The notes beneath the pieces were generated by a model that saw nothing but the letters and a program-made list of their open reading frames with translations, did no database searches and was not told the DNA's origin. From a virus (taxonomy: Duplodnaviria; Heunggongvirae; Uroviricota; Caudoviricetes), in IMG/VR virus record IMGVR_UViG_2645728010_000003: DNA of 22,959 nucleotides. One strand, 5' to 3'. Each line of letters begins with the position of its first letter. The first letter of the stretch is position 1. Shown here piece after piece: positions 12,712 to 20,606 of the stretch. The translations under genes were made by a program, and so were the position numbers.

Positions 12712-14478
12712 ATGAACACCACACTGACACCCGCAGATCTCGATCCCCGTCGGCAGGCCATGCTGCTGTACTTTCAGGGATACCGCGTAGCCCGCATTGC
12801 TGAAATGCTGGGCGAGAAAGTTGCAACCGTTCACAGCTGGAAAAAACGCGACAAGTGGGGTGACTATGGGCCGCTGGATCAGATGCAGCTCACCACCGCC
12901 GCACGCTACTGCCAGCTCATTATGAAGGAGCACAAAGAAGGGAAAGATTTCAAAGAGATTGACCTGCTGGCGCGCCAGTCGGAGCGCCATGCGCGGATCG
13001 GCAAGTTTAACAATGGCGGCAACGAAGCCGACTTAAACCCTAACGTCGCCAACCGCAACAAAGGCCCGCGTCGTCAGCCGGAAAAGAACGTTTTCACCGA
13101 TGAACAGATTGAGAAGCTGGAAGAAATCTTCCATTCCTCCATGTTCAACTACCAGCGCCACTGGTGGGAAGCCGGAAAAACCAACCGCATCCGCAACCTG
13201 CTGAAGTCACGCCAGATCGGCGCGACCTTCTATTTTGCCCGTGAAGCCCTGATTGACGCCCTGCTAACCGGGCGTAACCAGATTTTCCTTTCCGCCAGCA
13301 AGGCACAGGCCCACGTCTTTAAGCAGTACATCATCGACTTCGCCAAAGAAGTGGAGGTGGAGCTGAAAGGCGATCCGATAGTGCTTCCTAACGGGGCCAC
13401 GCTGTACTTCCTCGGCACCAATGCCCGCACGGCCCAGAGTTACCACGGCAACCTGTATCTGGATGAATATTTCTGGATACCGAAATTCCAAGAGCTGCGC
13501 AAAGTGGCTTCCGGTATGGCTATTCACAAAAAATGGCGACAAACCTATTTTTCCACGCCATCCAGCCTGACACACAGTGCTTATCCGTTCTGGTCCGGTG
13601 CGCTGTTCAACCGTGGGCGCAACAAAGCCGACAAGGTGGACATCGACCTGTCCCACAGCAATCTGGCCCCCGGCCTGCTGTGCACAGACGGGCAATACCG
13701 CCAGATAGTCACCGTGGAAGATGCGGTGCGCGGCGGCTGTAACCTGTTCGACCTCGACCAGCTACGCATGGAGTACAGCCCGGACGAATACCAGAACCTG
13801 CTGATGTGCGAGTTCGTGGACGATCTCGCGTCCGTGTTCCCGCTCAGCGAGCTGCAAGCGTGCATGGTGGACAGTTGGGAAATCTGGACCGACTTTCATG
13901 CACTGGCCCTGCGCCCGTTTGGCTGGCGCGAAGTGTGGATCGGTTATGACCCGGCAAAAGGTACGCAGAACGGCGACAGTGCCGGATGCGTGGTGGTGGC
14001 ACCGCCAGCCGTGCCGGGTGGTAAGTTCCGCATTCTTGAGCGTCACCAGTGGCGCGGGATGGACTTCCGCGCCCAGGCTGACGCCATCAAAAAACTGACC
14101 GAGCAGTACAACGTGACCTACATCGGCATCGACTCGACAGGTGTCGGCCACGGGGTTTACGAGAACGTGAAAGCGTTTTTTCCAGCCGTCCGGGAGTTTG
14201 TCTACAACCCCAACGTTAAAAACGCCCTGGTACTCAAGGCCTACGACATTATCAGTCACCGTCGTCTGGAGTTTGACGCCGGACACACCGACATAGCGCA
14301 GTCATTTATGGCAATCCGTCGCGCCACCACCGCCAGCGGCAACCGCCCAACCTATGAAGCCAGCCGCAGCGAAGAAGCCAGCCATGCCGATCTGGCCTGG
14401 GCAACAATGCACGCACTGTTTAACGAACCGCTGCAGGGCGAGTCCGCCAATACCAGCAATATTGTGGAGATTTTTTGA
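12712..14478 (+). CDS. P: Terminase large subunit (gpP-like)
   Basis: 588 aa; P2 gpP-like sequence with ATPase and nuclease regions. Confidence 0.92.
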   Translation: MNTTLTPADLDPRRQAMLLYFQGYRVARIAEMLGEKVATVHSWKKRDKWGDYGPLDQMQLTTAARYCQLIMKEHKEGKDFKEIDLLARQSERHARIGKFNNGGNEADLNPNVANRNKGPRRQPEKNVFTDEQIEKLEEIFHSSMFNYQRHWWEAGKTNRIRNLLKSRQIGATFYFAREALIDALLTGRNQIFLSASKAQAHVFKQYIIDFAKEVEVELKGDPIVLPNGATLYFLGTNARTAQSYHGNLYLDEYFWIPKFQELRKVASGMAIHKKWRQTYFSTPSSLTHSAYPFWSGALFNRGRNKADKVDIDLSHSNLAPGLLCTDGQYRQIVTVEDAVRGGCNLFDLDQLRMEYSPDEYQNLLMCEFVDDLASVFPLSELQACMVDSWEIWTDFHALALRPFGWREVWIGYDPAKGTQNGDSAGCVVVAPPAVPGGKFRILERHQWRGMDFRAQADAIKKLTEQYNVTYIGIDSTGVGHGVYENVKAFFPAVREFVYNPNVKNALVLKAYDIISHRRLEFDAGHTDIAQSFMAIRRATTASGNRPTYEASRSEEASHADLAWATMHALFNEPLQGESANTSNIVEIF

Positions 14479-15503
14479 TGGGAAAGAGTAAGAAAAACCG
14501 CGCTGCGGCGACGAACCAGATCCAGCATAAAAACCAAACTTCAGCCGAAGCATTCAGCTTCGGTGATCCCGTTCCTGTTCTGGACCGCCGCGAATTACTG
14601 GACTATGTGGAATGCGTAAAGATGGACCGCTGGTATGAGCCACCCGTAAGTTTTGACGGACTGGCGCGAACATTCCGCGCCGCCGTACACCACAGTTCAC
14701 CGATTGCAGTAAAGTGCAACATTCTGACCAGCACCTACATCCCTCACCCGCTGCTCAGCCAGCAGGCGTTTTCACGTTTTGTGCAGGACTATCTGGTTTT
14801 TGGTAACGCCTACCTGGAGAAACGCACGAACCGATTCGGTGAAGTTATCGCCCTTGAGCCTGCGCTGGCAAAATACACCCGACGCGGATTAGACCTAGAT
14901 ACCTACTGGTTTGTGCAATACGGCATGACCACGCAGCCGTATCAGTTCACGAAAGGCAGCATTTTTCATCTGATGGAACCGGACATCAACCAGGAGATCT
15001 ACGGCCTGCCCGGCTATCTTTCTGCCATCCCATCCGCCCTGCTCAACGAGTCCGCCACGCTGTTCCGCCGAAAGTATTACATTAACGGTAGTCATGCAGG
15101 CTTCATCATGTACATGACCGATGCCGCGCAGAACCAGGAAGATGTGAACAACCTCCGCAATGCGATGAAAAGTGCCAAAGGCCCTGGCAACTTCCGCAAC
15201 CTGTTTATGTACTCGCCTAATGGTAAAAAAGACGGACTTCAGATTATCCCGTTGTCAGAAGTCACAGCGAAGGATGAGTTTCTGAATATCAAGAACGTGA
15301 GCCGTGATGACATGATGGCGGCACACCGCGTGCCGCCGCAAATGATGGGAATTATGCCTAATAATGTCGGGGGGTTTGGGGATGTGGAGAAGGCTAGCAA
15401 GGTATTCGTAAGAAACGAATTGATGCCCCTGCAGAAACGATTGCAGGAACTAAATAACTGGTTGGACGAAGAAGTGCTCAATTTTTCAACCTATGAGCTT
15501 TAG
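14475..15503 (+). CDS. Q: Portal protein (gpQ-like)
   Basis: 342 aa; gpQ-like sequence; overlaps the P stop by 4 nt. Confidence 0.92.
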   Translation: MMGKSKKNRAAATNQIQHKNQTSAEAFSFGDPVPVLDRRELLDYVECVKMDRWYEPPVSFDGLARTFRAAVHHSSPIAVKCNILTSTYIPHPLLSQQAFSRFVQDYLVFGNAYLEKRTNRFGEVIALEPALAKYTRRGLDLDTYWFVQYGMTTQPYQFTKGSIFHLMEPDINQEIYGLPGYLSAIPSALLNESATLFRRKYYINGSHAGFIMYMTDAAQNQEDVNNLRNAMKSAKGPGNFRNLFMYSPNGKKDGLQIIPLSEVTAKDEFLNIKNVSRDDMMAAHRVPPQMMGIMPNNVGGFGDVEKASKVFVRNELMPLQKRLQELNNWLDEEVLNFSTYEL

Positions 15504-15511
15504 TTTTAAAA

Positions 15512-15531
15512 CGAAGACCATTAGGTCTTCG
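15512..15531. terminator. Bidirectional hairpin shared by convergent Q and retron RT
   Basis: cgaagacc-atta-ggtcttcg with T-rich flanks on both strands; the RT stop codon lies in the loop. Confidence 0.6.
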
Positions 15532-16483
15532 CTTTATTTAAAGGGTTCTTTCCATATTTTTTTTCTAATTTGCTAATATAAGTTATTAATCTCCTATGGC
15601 TTTTTGAATCCACACTTAAAATAAATGACAACCATCCCCTAACGTGTTCTATCTCAGAAGACTTACCGCAAAATATATGATGTATCTTTGCTCTAATTTC
15701 TTTATATTTTTCTCTACCTATCCCAACTTTCTCTTGTGAAATAACTAAACCTGTAACTTTCCTCTGACTACGAGGCCCACTAATACAAGTTTTTTTTGAG
15801 TTAATAACCAATCCTTCACTTGGGATTATAGAAAATAAAAAATCACGTGCTTTAACAACCTTTTTCATAGACTGTGCAGATAAGGTGAGATCATCGGCAT
15901 ATCTCGTATATATCAAGCCCCGACTACCTGCATAACCCTGAATACGATAATCAAGTTTAGAACATATTAGATTAGCTAATTTAGGTGATGATGGAGCACC
16001 TTGTGGTAGCAGATTTTTATAACAACATATTTTTGTCAAAACTGAAGATATTAGTCGATTATAACCAAGAGAATGGAACACTCCAAAAACTTTGTTAGCA
16101 GTTAAACTTGGGAAAAAATCCTCCAAATCAATATTCAGTATAAAGTTTGCCCCAATATGCGGGGTAGCATTATTCAAAATAGATTGGTGCTTTTCAAATC
16201 CAATAGAAAAAGGAGATGACGACAGTTTATCTAAAATGTTACGTAGAACCCATCCTTGTAAGGCTTTAAGTTCTCGAGAAGGTTGGTAAATGGTTCTCAT
16301 TCTCTTCTCTGGGCCTTTCTTTTCTACAGTGTAGATCCTATAGCGAAAATCAGCTGTATAGATTAACAACCGAAGTGTTTCAACAGATATGCGAGTCGCC
16401 TTAGACATGTCATGCAAATTGTTCATGACAGGTAGGCCGAGATTTCTCAATCTAAAAGTGTTCAAATATTCAGCGGATTTCAT
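15521..16483 (-). CDS. ret: Retron reverse transcriptase (Ec86/Eco1-type)
   Basis: 320 aa; RT motifs including LPQGAPSSP and YTRYADDLTLS (YADD box); directly downstream of the msr-msd locus; matches my memory of the Ec86 RT. Confidence 0.95.
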   Translation of the reverse strand: MKSAEYLNTFRLRNLGLPVMNNLHDMSKATRISVETLRLLIYTADFRYRIYTVEKKGPEKRMRTIYQPSRELKALQGWVLRNILDKLSSSPFSIGFEKHQSILNNATPHIGANFILNIDLEDFFPSLTANKVFGVFHSLGYNRLISSVLTKICCYKNLLPQGAPSSPKLANLICSKLDYRIQGYAGSRGLIYTRYADDLTLSAQSMKKVVKARDFLFSIIPSEGLVINSKKTCISGPRSQRKVTGLVISQEKVGIGREKYKEIRAKIHHIFCGKSSEIEHVRGWLSFILSVDSKSHRRLITYISKLEKKYGKNPLNKAKT

Positions 16484-16489
16484 GAAAGT

Positions 16490-16658
16490 TGCGCACCCTT
16501 ACGTCAGAAAAAACGGGTTTCCTGGTTGGCTCGGAGAGCATCAGGCGATGCTCTCCGTTCCAACAAGGAAAACAGACAGTAACTCAGATTCAATGCAGGA
16601 TGCCGAAACAACATCCAGAGGTTGACCTTAATGATAAACCTCTCGCTAAGGGTGCGCA
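16490..16658 (-). ncRNA. msr-msd: Retron msr-msd non-coding RNA (msDNA template)
   Basis: Flanked by 12-bp inverted repeats a2 (16490-16501, TGCGCACCCTTA) and a1 (16647-16658); internal perfect 10-bp hairpin at 16533-16556; minus-strand sequence matches what I recall of Ec86 msr/msd. Confidence 0.9.
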
Positions 16659-17569
16659 TACGGAATCTTATCATAGTTAAATGTTGATTTTCTACGGTTT
16701 TCAAAATTCATAATCTCAAGCCGCAATCGGTCAAGTGTCTTTCTATCAAAGACGCTCCTAACATAGCTAGCCCCCAAAGCAGTGACCTGATAACCATCAG
16801 TCATTTGAAGTATTTTTCGTTCATTTATTAGACGAGAAACAACGGATCTAACAATAATTTTAGATAAAACATCATCTTGCTTTATCGCTTTAAAAGCTAG
16901 TTCACACAGTGTGCGGTAGTTGACACTATCCAGTAAATAGATACAAGGCAATAGAAACCGCTCTGCGTATAATATATTTCCAATATCTTTTGATACTTTA
17001 TTTTCTTTCCTAACCTTCTTAATAGATGCCATTAATTTTTTATATAATCGTAATTTTCTGGCAACATCAATAGATGAATCACACATTTCTTTTAGTTCAT
17101 TTGAACTACAACGCAAAACAGATTTTGAATTAAACTTACGCAACAGGCGAACAGGACCATAGTTAATAAAGCTACGTTTTGATTTAAATTTTGCATCTTG
17201 AATGCAAATCAACTTTCTCCTTAAGTTTTCATTATTAGAGAACGCACCAAGCTCTGTGAAAGACCCCGGACTTTCAGGAAATAAAATTATTACATCGACA
17301 GCTTCAGCCAGAATATTTTCTAAACTTAAAAGGCTATGCTGCCCTTGACCAGCCAAAAGATCATCAAATAGATCTTCTGGATAAAATATATCAACATCAC
17401 TGAACTTTGCTAAAAATTGTGATAATTGATGACGCCAAGATTGATGATTAGCAACGTCACCACCACATAGAAAAATGGTTATTTTAATATTAGCTCCTCG
17501 ATAGAAGCCTTTCTTTGTGAGATGTCCTATAAGCTGTTGTTGCTGCTCATCGGTAAATTTTTTATTCAT
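16646..17569 (-). CDS. Retron effector, nucleoside 2-deoxyribosyltransferase-like N-terminal domain plus C-terminal domain
   Basis: 307 aa directly upstream of msr; Rossmann-like IFLCGG ... ILFPESPGSFTELG pattern; stop codon overlaps a1; GGGGAG RBS. Confidence 0.8.
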   Translation of the reverse strand: MNKKFTDEQQQQLIGHLTKKGFYRGANIKITIFLCGGDVANHQSWRHQLSQFLAKFSDVDIFYPEDLFDDLLAGQGQHSLLSLENILAEAVDVIILFPESPGSFTELGAFSNNENLRRKLICIQDAKFKSKRSFINYGPVRLLRKFNSKSVLRCSSNELKEMCDSSIDVARKLRLYKKLMASIKKVRKENKVSKDIGNILYAERFLLPCIYLLDSVNYRTLCELAFKAIKQDDVLSKIIVRSVVSRLINERKILQMTDGYQVTALGASYVRSVFDRKTLDRLRLEIMNFENRRKSTFNYDKIPYAHP

Positions 17570-17642
17570 AATCTCCCCGCTTTTTTTTCTACTTTATACA
17601 TCAAGTTATGAATAGATCCAATCTCCATACCACATGGCGCGC

Positions 17643-17662
17643 GCTCGTATCCCCGCCACGCC
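17643..17662 (-). other. cos-like remnant (13 of 19 nt of the remembered 186 cohesive end)
   Basis: Minus strand reads GGCGTGGCGGGGATACGAGC; the first 13 nt equal the 186 cos start as I remember it (GGCGTGGCGGGGAAAGCAT). Confidence 0.35.
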
Positions 17663-17684
17663 TGCCCGCTTTATGCAGTGGTTT

Positions 17685-17786
17685 TCATGCACATGCATAA
17701 CATGAGCAAAAGCCCGCCAGTTCTGGCGGATCTGAGCAAAGACGATCCTCAATCGATCATGCGATTTCATGCAGCATAGTCATGCA
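17685..17786. repeat. Cluster of five to six (T)CATGCA motifs
   Basis: Copies at about 17685, 17692, 17757, 17767 and 17780, plus variants; function unknown. Confidence 0.35.
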
Positions 17787-18041
17787 CTGTCAAGGAAGTG
17801 AAAATCCGTATCTGAATGGCCACTTGAAAAACGGATCATACGGGTTTACAAAGATGAATGTTCGCTGTGAACGGGAAGCGGAAGTTAACTTTCAGATAAC
17901 ATAATCCATATGCACGAGAACCTCTAAAATAGAATGGGACACCTAAGCGGGGTACTTACAACGATTCTTTCCATATTCACAGTTAACACTCTGTTTGGCG
18001 TATTTTTATTCAAATAGCAAACACCAATAAAAGGAGTTTCC

Positions 18042-18377
18042 ATGAACAATATTCCCCCTATACCACAGTTAGGAATTTATGTCTCAAAAATCGATCCCAC
18101 CCTACGTATCACTGTAACCGATGTTGATATTGTTGATGGTGAGGATGATTCTCCTGATGATGAATTGTTTTATTTAGTCCACTGGATCGAGGGGGAAGAT
18201 GAAAGTGATATGACAGCAATGGGATTTGAGCTAGACCCAGTAGAGTGGCAGGCTTTCGTTGAATCTGAGCAATTAGTGTTTGAGCGTGATCCGTACATGG
18301 ATTCAATCCCCGAAAATTCAAACTTGGCAAAGATTCGGGATTTTCTCATGAAGACTAAACAGAATGATCATTCGTAA
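18042..18377 (+). CDS. Strongly acidic small protein of unknown function
   Basis: 111 aa with 26 Asp/Glu against 7 Lys/Arg; AAGGAG RBS 6 nt upstream; only + strand gene in the A-to-Q interval. Confidence 0.6.
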   Translation: MNNIPPIPQLGIYVSKIDPTLRITVTDVDIVDGEDDSPDDELFYLVHWIEGEDESDMTAMGFELDPVEWQAFVESEQLVFERDPYMDSIPENSNLAKIRDFLMKTKQNDHS

Positions 18378-18569
18378 GTGTAAGCATCCATCAGGAAAAT
18401 GGTTTTGTAAGTGAATCATCAACTTTTAGAGAGTCTCAGACACTCCCACTTCTGCTTCTGACACAAAGCGGACGATCACTTATCAAAATAACCGCCCACC
18501 TTACGCCTTATTTCACTCATTGCCCAAACTAGCCCCCATCAGAATGAATCCTCCTGGGGGCAACATTTC

Positions 18570-19042: not shown

Positions 19043-19062
19043 CACTGTTTATATTTACAGTA
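19043..19062. promoter_or_regulatory. LexA (SOS) box, CTGT-N8-ACAG
   Basis: cACTGTttatatttACAGta overlapping an AT-rich -10-like region about 40 nt upstream of the 62-aa ORF. Confidence 0.6.
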
Positions 19063-19154: not shown

Positions 19155-20606
19155 TTAATACAGGTTCCGCCACTTATCATCTTCCTTCAGACGCTGGTTC
19201 CGATAGAAGATACGCAGGCCTGCTCCTGACGGAATACTGCCGCCGCGAAGGAGCAAATCGACTTCTTTCTCGCTGCCATCAAATCCCCTGGACTTCAGTT
19301 CATAGACGAGCTGCTGTCGCTGATGGTCTGTAATTCGCTGTTTGTAGTCTTTACGCCGTTTCGGTTTCACCTGGCGTAACCTTGCAGCCAGTTCCCGGCG
19401 CTCTTTTTTGCTCATACTGTGCAGGTAATTGTGCAACTCCTTGTCATTCATACGGGTAATATCCGTTCTGGAGTCCCCATCAGCTGATTTGTCTTTCCCT
19501 TGTTGGTTCAAATTTTCAGCAAGGGGACAGTTATTGCCACGAGTCCAAGGGGCGCAAGCGCCCTGGTCGGCTGCCGCCTCCTGAACGTCAACGGCCTTAC
19601 GAACCATTTTCCACTTCACCGCATGAGTGCAGATCTTGCCCTCTGCAATGGGTGACCAGATGCCATAAATACGAATACCGTGATCGCCATATGCGGTCGG
19701 TTCTTCGTTGATTTCATAAGCAGTTCTGATGAGGTGATATTTGCGGGGAACCAGTACGCCGCCCTGCTTCATGATGTAGGTGGCAAAACAACCAGCATCA
19801 GCAGCAGCCAGGATTGCATCAAGACGCGGGTTATCCAGTACCGGCGCACCTGCTTTTTTGTCACCCTGTTGCCTTGCCGCCTGACCAGCCAGCAATCGCA
19901 GTTCACGGTAAGCCTGACGCCCCGGAATGCCAAAGAAGCGGAATTGCTGAACACGATGCAGAGACGCCCAGGCATTAACGTATTCAGCGTTATCACGCAG
20001 GGATTTACCCGTTTCCTTGCTGATCTCCCCAGCCAGACCACGCCCGTCAATGTTCTTACTGATGTATTTCGCGATATAGCTTGTTGGCGTACCTTTGCGC
20101 GGGTTTATCAGCTCAGACTTAAAGCGTGGTCCCGTGTTATTGCCCAGCTCCTCGCGGTCTTCACGGATGGCAAACTTACGCAGTAATGCAGTGATGGCGC
20201 GGCGGTCTTTTTTACGCATGAAACACATGAGATGCCAGTGCACAGTACCGTCATGATGCGGCTCAGCTACCGCACCTGCAGCAACACGCCCGATCTCTGC
20301 GGTTGCACTCATGACGTAATGTGGCAGTTTCTCTTTTGCCACCTCATTAATCGGTACGCATGGCAGGCAGTGAATCTGAGCCAGAAAACCATCTACCAGC
20401 GTTGAATCTTCAGTCAGATCGGTAAGCAGCCAGATTTCTGGTGCGGTTAATAAATGAGGTTGCGCTGGGTTCAACTTGTTCCGCAGAATCTGCACATTCA
20501 TGCCAGCACGTTCTGCCAGTTGCACCAGGTTGTGGCGCAATGCGAATGCACGACAGGCTTCATCAAAATGTGGATGTTTGGAAACTTGGTAATCAAACAT
20601 GGTCAA
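19155..20606 (-). CDS. A: Chimeric ORF: CII-like N-terminus fused to a rolling-circle initiator (gpA-like) C-terminal part; probably a deletion product
   Basis: First ~115 aa resemble phage regulatory protein CII ([18 protein letters not shown] ... [24 protein letters not shown]); the rest carries HUH-like HWH and YIAKYISK tyrosine motifs; 483 aa, well short of an intact gpA. Confidence 0.75.

Follow-up and report, generated by a model that had tools for sequence, protein, structure and literature searches.

The window analysed here, a stretch of 22,959 nucleotides, matches the defective P2-like prophage of E. coli B and BL21(DE3) at 100% identity. In RefSeq, the order of its genes is terminase, portal gene Q, a 'retron St85 family' reverse transcriptase (RT) and effector, WP_001059831.1, a DinI-like gene, a gene for a 62-aa hypothetical protein, a truncated replication endonuclease A, CI and integrase. 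The gene under study encodes WP_001059831.1 on the + strand and, as first described from the open reading frame list and the sequence, starts with ATG at position 18042 and specifies 111 aa up to position 18377. The features relevant to its interpretation are as follows.

15521-17569, - strand: retron Ec86/Eco1 (type II-A), with an NDT-like effector gene at 16646-17569 and the RT gene at 15521-16483, separated by about 160 bp
17637-17787: conserved block flanking cos, containing repeats of the CATGCA type and, at 17713-17730, a terminator-like hairpin for transcription of the - strand
17644-17662, - strand: equivalent of the cos cohesive end, reading GGCGTGGCGGGGATACGAG on the - strand versus GGCGAGGCGGGGAAAGCAC in P2, placed by by-eye alignment to the annotated cosR/cosL of P2
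17788-18449, + strand: cargo of the slot between cosR and the DinI-like gene, about 660 bp, which most related P2-like prophages lack or have exchanged for something else
17871-18041, + strand: conserved non-coding leader/promoter region with a sharp left edge, (T)GAGCGA..GAACGGAAGTT, which moves with the gene
18031-18036, + strand: Shine-Dalgarno sequence AAGGAG, 5 nt before the ATG, kept in seven independent contexts
18042-18377, + strand: the acidic coding sequence, WP_001059831.1, 'Ybl33', DUF8087/PF26332, PHROG 17127
18364-18414, + strand: fossil of the 5' end of an integrase gene (int), 16 codons, whose ATG overlaps the end of the acidic gene and which reads MIIRKCKHPSGKWFCK followed by a stop codon

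The encoded protein (12.8 kDa, pI 4.05) contains 15 aspartate and 11 glutamate residues versus 4 lysines and 3 arginines (26 versus 7), which corresponds to a net charge of -19, and the GC content of its gene is 40%, compared to 48.6% across the window. The net charge, the two acidic runs and the strong ribosome-binding site to which an earlier note on this DNA had drawn attention are all present in the sequence and its translation, and the gene is, as also stated there, the only one on the + strand from A (19155-20606, - strand) to Q (14475-15503, + strand). The label 'orphan' had to be given up, since the protein is a member of DUF8087 (PF26332) and of PHROG 17127, with the latter match (E=2e-70) covering residues 1-111 of 111. 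The PF26332 domain is precomputed for the exact protein and for all 61 of its homologues; in line with this assignment, the newer RefSeq name of WP_001059831.1 is 'DUF8087 domain-containing protein', while UniRef uses the name 'Ybl33'. Family scans of the protein with NCBIfam, PADLOC and a copy of Pfam that did not include PF26332 gave no match, a Pfam scan of 37 family members returned noise only, and a profile search of PDB sequences with DUF8087 gave no match. The literature was searched by family, accession, locus tags, peptide strings and the name 'Ybl33', and these searches returned nothing relevant on this protein.

A word-indexed search of 5.8 billion proteins yielded 61 homologue clusters with 50-98% identity, all of them from Enterobacterales, and when 1.84 billion cluster representatives were searched exhaustively with a profile, only 35 proteins (44-132 aa) emerged, which have residues 5-80 in common. 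The exact sequence of the acidic protein is indexed in 19,248 blocks of an assembly collection, and only five DUF8087 loci were found among 185,579 species-representative genomes. Conservation of the gene spans 12 or more genera and several genomic settings that are independent of one another. Ratios of dN to dS were determined by the Nei-Gojobori method and could be computed only for pairs with an estimable dS, dS being saturated in the remaining ones; they amounted to 0.18-0.21 for closer pairs and to 0.06-0.16 for three more distant pairs. Values of about 0.2 indicate purifying selection. The acidic gene is real, conserved and under selection; it is an uncharacterised representative of a DUF family already catalogued, and the hotspot in which it lies is well known.

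Acidity is a trait of the whole DUF8087 family, with a median net charge of -17 among close relatives and of -12 among distant relatives (68-132 aa), and although the acidic loops differ in length and sequence, they remain acidic. The positions that are invariant in close and distant members are P8, G11, Y13 and W69, together with a hydrophobic core; given that the charge is kept as well, it is the fold plus its negative charge that is conserved, without any catalytic constellation. An AlphaFold2 model built from a 34-sequence alignment (pLDDT 80, pTM 0.66) predicts strands at residues 11-15, 22-31, 43-50, 61-64 and 78-82, a helix at residues 66-76 and a C-terminal helix at residues 94-108; its confidence is lowest for residues 31-40 (block mean pLDDT 60), inside the acidic loop 32-42. 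The resemblance of the modelled five-strand β-barrel to SH3/Tudor-like proteins is generic, at fold-class-level scores and 4-13% identity and without a close structural relative, and it is so weak that the deduction of a mechanism from the fold is unsupported. The small β-barrels concerned, those of DUF1653 (PDB 3be3), FeoA and the CarD/CdnL type, reached fold-class scores only, which do not justify a transfer of function. None of these barrels is known to be as acidic as DUF8087. In one copy, from E. coli 20KM2222 (locus L004, 7043-7357), a 5-nt insertion near codon 100 alters the C-terminal tail, giving a protein of 104 aa. Distant relatives lack the C-terminal tail, so that it may be dispensable.

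The cos site of the prophage is located between the retron and the acidic gene. Around it (17630-17680), the - strand reads AAAACCACTGCATAAAGCGGGCA-GGCGTGGCGGGGATACGAG-CGCGCGC, and the corresponding sequence of P2 (NC_001895) is AAAACCGCCCCGTGAAGCGGGCG-GGCGAGGCGGGGAAAGCAC-TGCGCGC; since the P2 cos sequence itself found no match within the window at up to 3 mismatches, the prophage cos has diverged. The flanking block at 17637-17787 occurs in over 1,000 P2-like prophages of E. coli. When eight loci (six prophages and two islands) were aligned, all six DUF8087-bearing prophages were identical rightwards from position 17637 and unrelated leftwards of it, and in a BLAST search with positions 15521-18377 homology stopped exactly at 17637 in hundreds of genomes. 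The A-Q region of P2 has been described as a hotspot for defence cargo and was treated as one interval (Rousset et al. 2022, PMC9122126; NAR 2026, PMC13586616). The P2 'A-Q hotspot' consists of two sub-slots, one on either side of cos, which exchange their cargo independently, and because cos divides the interval, neighbourhood across it is no sign of functional linkage. In packaged DNA, the retron is part of the left end (cosL-Q) and the acidic gene belongs to the right end, where it starts about 380 bp from cosR and points away from cos. The gene lies inside the published hotspot, beside validated kinds of defence cargo (retrons, GmrSD), and it is not recognised by PADLOC.

Several smaller observations concern the immediate surroundings of cos. 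The retron-side cargo starts 7 nt past the 19-nt cohesive-end equivalent (GCGCGCG plus CTCGTATCCCCGCCACGCC). Among the DUF8087-bearing prophages, almost nothing is conserved on the cosL side, and about 125 bp (17663-17787) are kept on the cosR side. An open reading frame of 54 aa on the - strand (17606-17770), which appears as a gene call in GenBank CP001509, overlaps both cos and the conserved block and is for this reason probably no real gene.

PADLOC assigned the retron to type II-A (RT_II-A, 7.1e-128; NDT_II-A, 2.7e-94). The description of the acidic gene as lying next to it is correct in terms of base pairs, with 472 bp between the start of the gene and that of the effector gene, and misleading otherwise, since the cos site of the prophage stands between them. 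This short distance, and the joint presence of retron and acidic gene in 46 complete E. coli genomes (including laboratory strains of E. coli B and BL21), would suit a protein that regulates retron Ec86, serves as its antidote or acts against retrons. The two genes are, however, divergently oriented and separated by cos and the conserved flanking block. In a P2-like context, the acidic gene was found in about 131 E. coli genomes, of which about 85 (about 65%) contain other cargo on the retron side, namely RTs of 447, 586 or 646 aa, GmrSD, an AAA_21 ATPase, a three-gene cassette of RT, AAA-type ATPase and a 222-aa protein, a PDC-S59-like ATPase or a 2TM protein. Its homologues, moreover, reside in operons and islands without a retron. 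The gene thus does not co-occur obligatorily with the retron RT, ncRNA and NDT effector (opposite strand, cos between, 46 of about 131), and the proposed link to a retron partner or effector is not borne out. A role of DUF8087 with the retron is very unlikely, and retron Ec86 requires no explanation that involves the acidic gene.

In related prophages, homology to the cosR-DinI region was confined to query positions 68-218 and 881/991-1591, and the interval between them contains either nothing or a gene for a GNAT, HNH endonuclease, DUF6236 or DUF4145 protein. About 10% of the more than 1,300 E. coli genomes with the cos block and the DinI-like operon carry the acidic gene, and positions 17788-18449 are missing in most. 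Situated between the A-side genes and cosR and pointing away from cos, the acidic gene shares its slot and orientation with the old/tin cassette of P2, and both represent swappable right-end cargo. P2 Old (an ATPase-nuclease) and Tin have no sequence or domain relation to DUF8087, in which no enzyme domain can be recognised. The acidic gene is cargo of the P2 old/tin slot, with exclusion as a candidate activity only.

Both the P2-like cassette of E. coli and the islands of E. coli ECONIH1, Morganella, Serratia, Symbiopectobacterium, Lonsdalea and Proteus contain the leader. Over its last 91 nt, identity amounts to 86-89%, so that this part is as conserved as the coding sequence, at a dS of 0.3-0.37; the leader is therefore conserved above the neutral rate and under constraint. 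The segment that the E. coli prophage copy has in common with all island copies extends from about 17871 to 18410 and comprises the 170-nt leader, the coding sequence and the scrap of int. DUF8087 constitutes an autonomous single-gene cargo cassette, or 'moron', made up of these three elements.

A search for a consensus sigma-70 promoter upstream of the acidic gene gave no candidate. Late control by Ogr was dismissed, as no TGT-N12-ACA motif lies nearby, and so was SOS control, as the only LexA box (19045-19060) belongs to the operon of the 62-aa and DinI-like genes. The leader gave no Rfam match, and RNAalifold returned a covariation term of +0.36 with 1 compensatory pair, so that a cis-regulatory RNA was rejected as well. 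An origin of the leader as a fossil 3' end of the FlkN gene described below had a single 17-aa match (E=1.6) in its favour and was left as unsupported.

The LexA-box pattern at 19045-19060 (CTGTTTATATTTACAG) is perfect and lies just upstream of the - strand operon of the 62-aa and DinI-like genes (19002 down to 18570); 27 out of 100 shuffled versions of the window contain a match of LexA-box type by chance. We take this region, with its LexA box and DinI-like operon, to resemble the SOS-controlled tum region of phage 186. Judging from the LexA box and the likeness to tum, the prophage lineage may be SOS-inducible. In the 483-aa open reading frame at 19155-20606 (- strand), the N-terminus of a CII/CP76-like regulator is joined to the C-terminal portion of replication protein A, the result of a deletion of the early genes between the two. 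Both halves of the fusion are annotated as pseudogenes in RefSeq, which fits a defective prophage, and the scaffold and lysis genes of the BL21 prophage are likewise truncated. An additional cargo slot of E. coli P2-like prophages is the gap between CI and int (loci L005-L014, e.g. L005, 15195-16336), which contains genes for a KAP NTPase, SNIPE/T5orf172, AAA_15/SMC-like proteins or YdcA.

The int fossil at the end of the acidic gene matches KLPSGKWLCQ, the N-terminus of the P2-like Int of Klebsiella (tblastn, E=0.034, 931-nt target). In P2-like prophages of Klebsiella and Enterobacter, a homologue that is 65-81% identical lies in the order C, FlkN, DUF8087 and int, with gaps of 9-10 bp and a DUF8087 stop codon that overlaps the int start by 4 bp. 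FlkN ('Flk_N') is a tail-anchored protein of 211-215 aa in these operons. The same gene order was found in Buttiauxella and for a 41%-identical relative, while a distant member of 82 aa is part of an operon with the order C, int and DUF8087, and another distant member stands alone, as a remnant, at the pgsA-uvrC attachment site. Location on the same strand and with tight spacing within a C-int operon is thus seen in Klebsiella, Enterobacter, Buttiauxella and distant homologues, but not for the window copy at cos. From gene order and the retained piece of int, the DUF8087 cassette can be traced to the repressor-integrase operon of P2-like prophages, and it was captured later, with the int scrap, in the right-end slot of E. 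coli P2-like prophages and in islands. The fossil shows how lysogeny-operon cargo is excised and finds new use, in other slots and in islands.

A short metagenomic contig (L040) encodes a presumed C repressor (113-496) and, downstream, a tail-anchored FlkN-like protein (506-1135); the C-terminus of the former and the N-terminus of the latter share the motif NRxAGRDFxE, with 78% identity over 18 aa. The motif also occurs in FlkN of the Klebsiella, Enterobacter and Buttiauxella prophages (L017, 6343-6990; L026, 5341-5976; L039, 7341-7970).

The island copies of Serratia, Symbiopectobacterium, Lonsdalea and Proteus retain 28-62 codons of int. Downstream of DUF8087, Lonsdalea, Proteus and E. coli ECONIH1 encode a transmembrane (TM) protein of 127 aa. 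In Morganella/Providencia, the cassette lies 250 bp downstream of mkoC of a Mokosh type II system (PADLOC, 1497 bits), on an island that also holds KlcA/Antirestrict and DUF932 genes. An 88% variant present in 82 E. coli genomes lies between IS1182 and a gene for a 1,589-aa TmtA/MkoA-like helicase (Tiamat-like/Mokosh-like). A tblastn search of 50,697 GenBank phage records returned no copy of DUF8087, and among 72,556 plasmids the same type of search identified one, on a 45-kb non-mobilizable record; given these figures, DUF8087 is not a gene of virulent phages or of plasmid leading regions. FlkN and DUF8087 were also considered as an obligate pair, an idea that was rejected because FlkN is far commoner (195 versus 61 clusters) and usually occurs without DUF8087. 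Obligate adjacency to FlkN or to the 127-aa TM protein, as expected for a two-gene module, was not found, the E. coli P2 and Morganella copies being without either. In the commonest K. pneumoniae prophage, the gap between FlkN and int is filled by an unrelated gene for a 288-aa protein.

The reading that best joins these results, to which we give an even chance, is that DUF8087 is stand-alone cargo encoding a non-enzymatic acidic β-barrel that serves as an inhibitor or decoy in conflicts of mobile elements, independently of retron Ec86. The protein would be made by the resident prophage or island, in the case of E. coli presumably by the lysogen. It would then act stoichiometrically, by binding to a basic and probably nucleic-acid-binding surface of its target protein, and this interaction would make it a competitive inhibitor or decoy in the conflict of the mobile element with its host or with other phages. 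Its lysogen-type slots, together with the tiny size, non-enzymatic nature and persistent acidity of the protein, make binding to the basic surface of another protein the most likely mode of action. The slot context leans towards a lysogen-protective role and the physico-chemical properties lean towards an inhibitor. Against this reading, the same cargo slots also take up genes unrelated to defence, and an argument from slot position is one of guilt by association. The interpretation offered in the earlier note survives in part, in its general form of an acidic inhibitor, but not in its link to the retron, given the intervening cos site and the independent distribution. If it is an inhibitor or decoy, DUF8087 would extend the range of small acidic proteins in phage-host conflicts by a new fold and a new family, and since BL21 already carries the gene, it is an easily tested candidate.

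More tentatively, DUF8087 could represent a new family of nucleic-acid-mimic inhibitors that is built on an SH3-like barrel, expressed by the resident element from lysogeny-type slots and active in anti-defence or in defence by mimicry. An inhibitor of this kind might inactivate a defence nuclease or helicase by which the element is endangered, similar to an anti-CRISPR protein; as a decoy, it might instead disable the DNA-binding protein of a superinfecting phage. In either case, DUF8087 would hop as a single-gene cassette among the slots of P2-like prophages and the cargo regions of ICEs and islands. The strong negative charge typical of DNA mimics is kept throughout the family, and like T7 Ocr, ArdA, T4 Arn, Ugi, AcrIIA4/AcrF2 and CarS, the DUF8087 proteins are small, acidic (pI about 4), non-enzymatic and borne by mobile elements. 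Unlike these proteins, to which they have no homology or fold match, they are encoded in lysogeny-type slots and, bar one plasmid record, in integrated elements only. Family, PDB-profile and structure comparisons detected no sequence or fold homology to known DNA-mimic or anti-defence families. Myxococcus CarS is an acidic SH3-like antirepressor, which illustrates that an SH3-like barrel can serve as a DNA mimic.

The same properties could be accommodated by an entry-phase DNA mimic of the Ocr/ArdA/Arn type, blocking restriction-modification, CRISPR and other DNA-binding immunity proteins as the DNA enters the cell. A charge of -19 in 111 aa, the family-wide acidity and the small, non-enzymatic nature of the protein agree with this idea, as do the carriage of the gene by several kinds of mobile elements and its location close to one end of the packaged genome (about 380 bp away), behind a conserved leader of its own. 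We nevertheless consider it rather unlikely. Apart from the lack of sequence or fold likeness to any known DNA-mimic or anti-defence family, the near-absence of the gene from phage and plasmid records (0 of 50,697 and 1 of 72,556, respectively) makes an entry-phase role less likely, and both the ancestral C-int operon and the present old/tin slot are classically expressed in the lysogen, where a constitutive blocker of immunity would be costly. The operon position points to an alternative within the phage itself, in which the protein modulates Int or the C repressor by mimicking their DNA sites and thereby tunes integration, excision and immunity. Its translational coupling to int and position in the C-int operon in several lineages, the int fragment that still travels with the gene and the precedent of CarS speak in favour of such a lysogeny factor, which is improbable all the same: purifying selection persists away from int and C, at cos and in islands, most P2-like prophages are without the gene, and the position between FlkN and int is a cargo slot, as is evident from its unrelated 288-aa occupant in K. 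pneumoniae.

Another explanation that draws on the neighbouring genes holds the protein to be the antidote or partner of a small membrane protein next to it, either the FlkN-like one upstream or the 127-aa TM protein downstream, within a two-gene exclusion or abortive-infection module; in E. coli, the antidote would have been left without its partner. Adjacency to FlkN is indeed kept down to 41% DUF8087 identity, and the block of DUF8087, truncated int and 127-aa gene recurs in E. coli, Lonsdalea and Proteus and, in part, in Serratia. The excess of FlkN over DUF8087 clusters, the usual occurrence of FlkN without DUF8087 and the conservation of the E. coli P2 and Morganella copies in the absence of either partner render this explanation quite improbable. 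That the open reading frame is a functionless hitchhiker would accord with the empty searches for literature, function and promoter and with the frameshift near the C-terminus in one copy; in view of a dN/dS of about 0.2, the presence in at least 12 genera and several contexts and a leader conserved above the neutral rate, it is extremely unlikely.

Distant members of the family from metagenomic sequences have an N-terminal extension of the form MGxAKxRGxxxxRIxQA, which is also present on an unrelated protein of 103 aa encoded just downstream (locus L041, 275-583 and 659-970). Metagenomic members of this type adjoin toxin-antitoxin pairs (BrnT/A and HigB/A).
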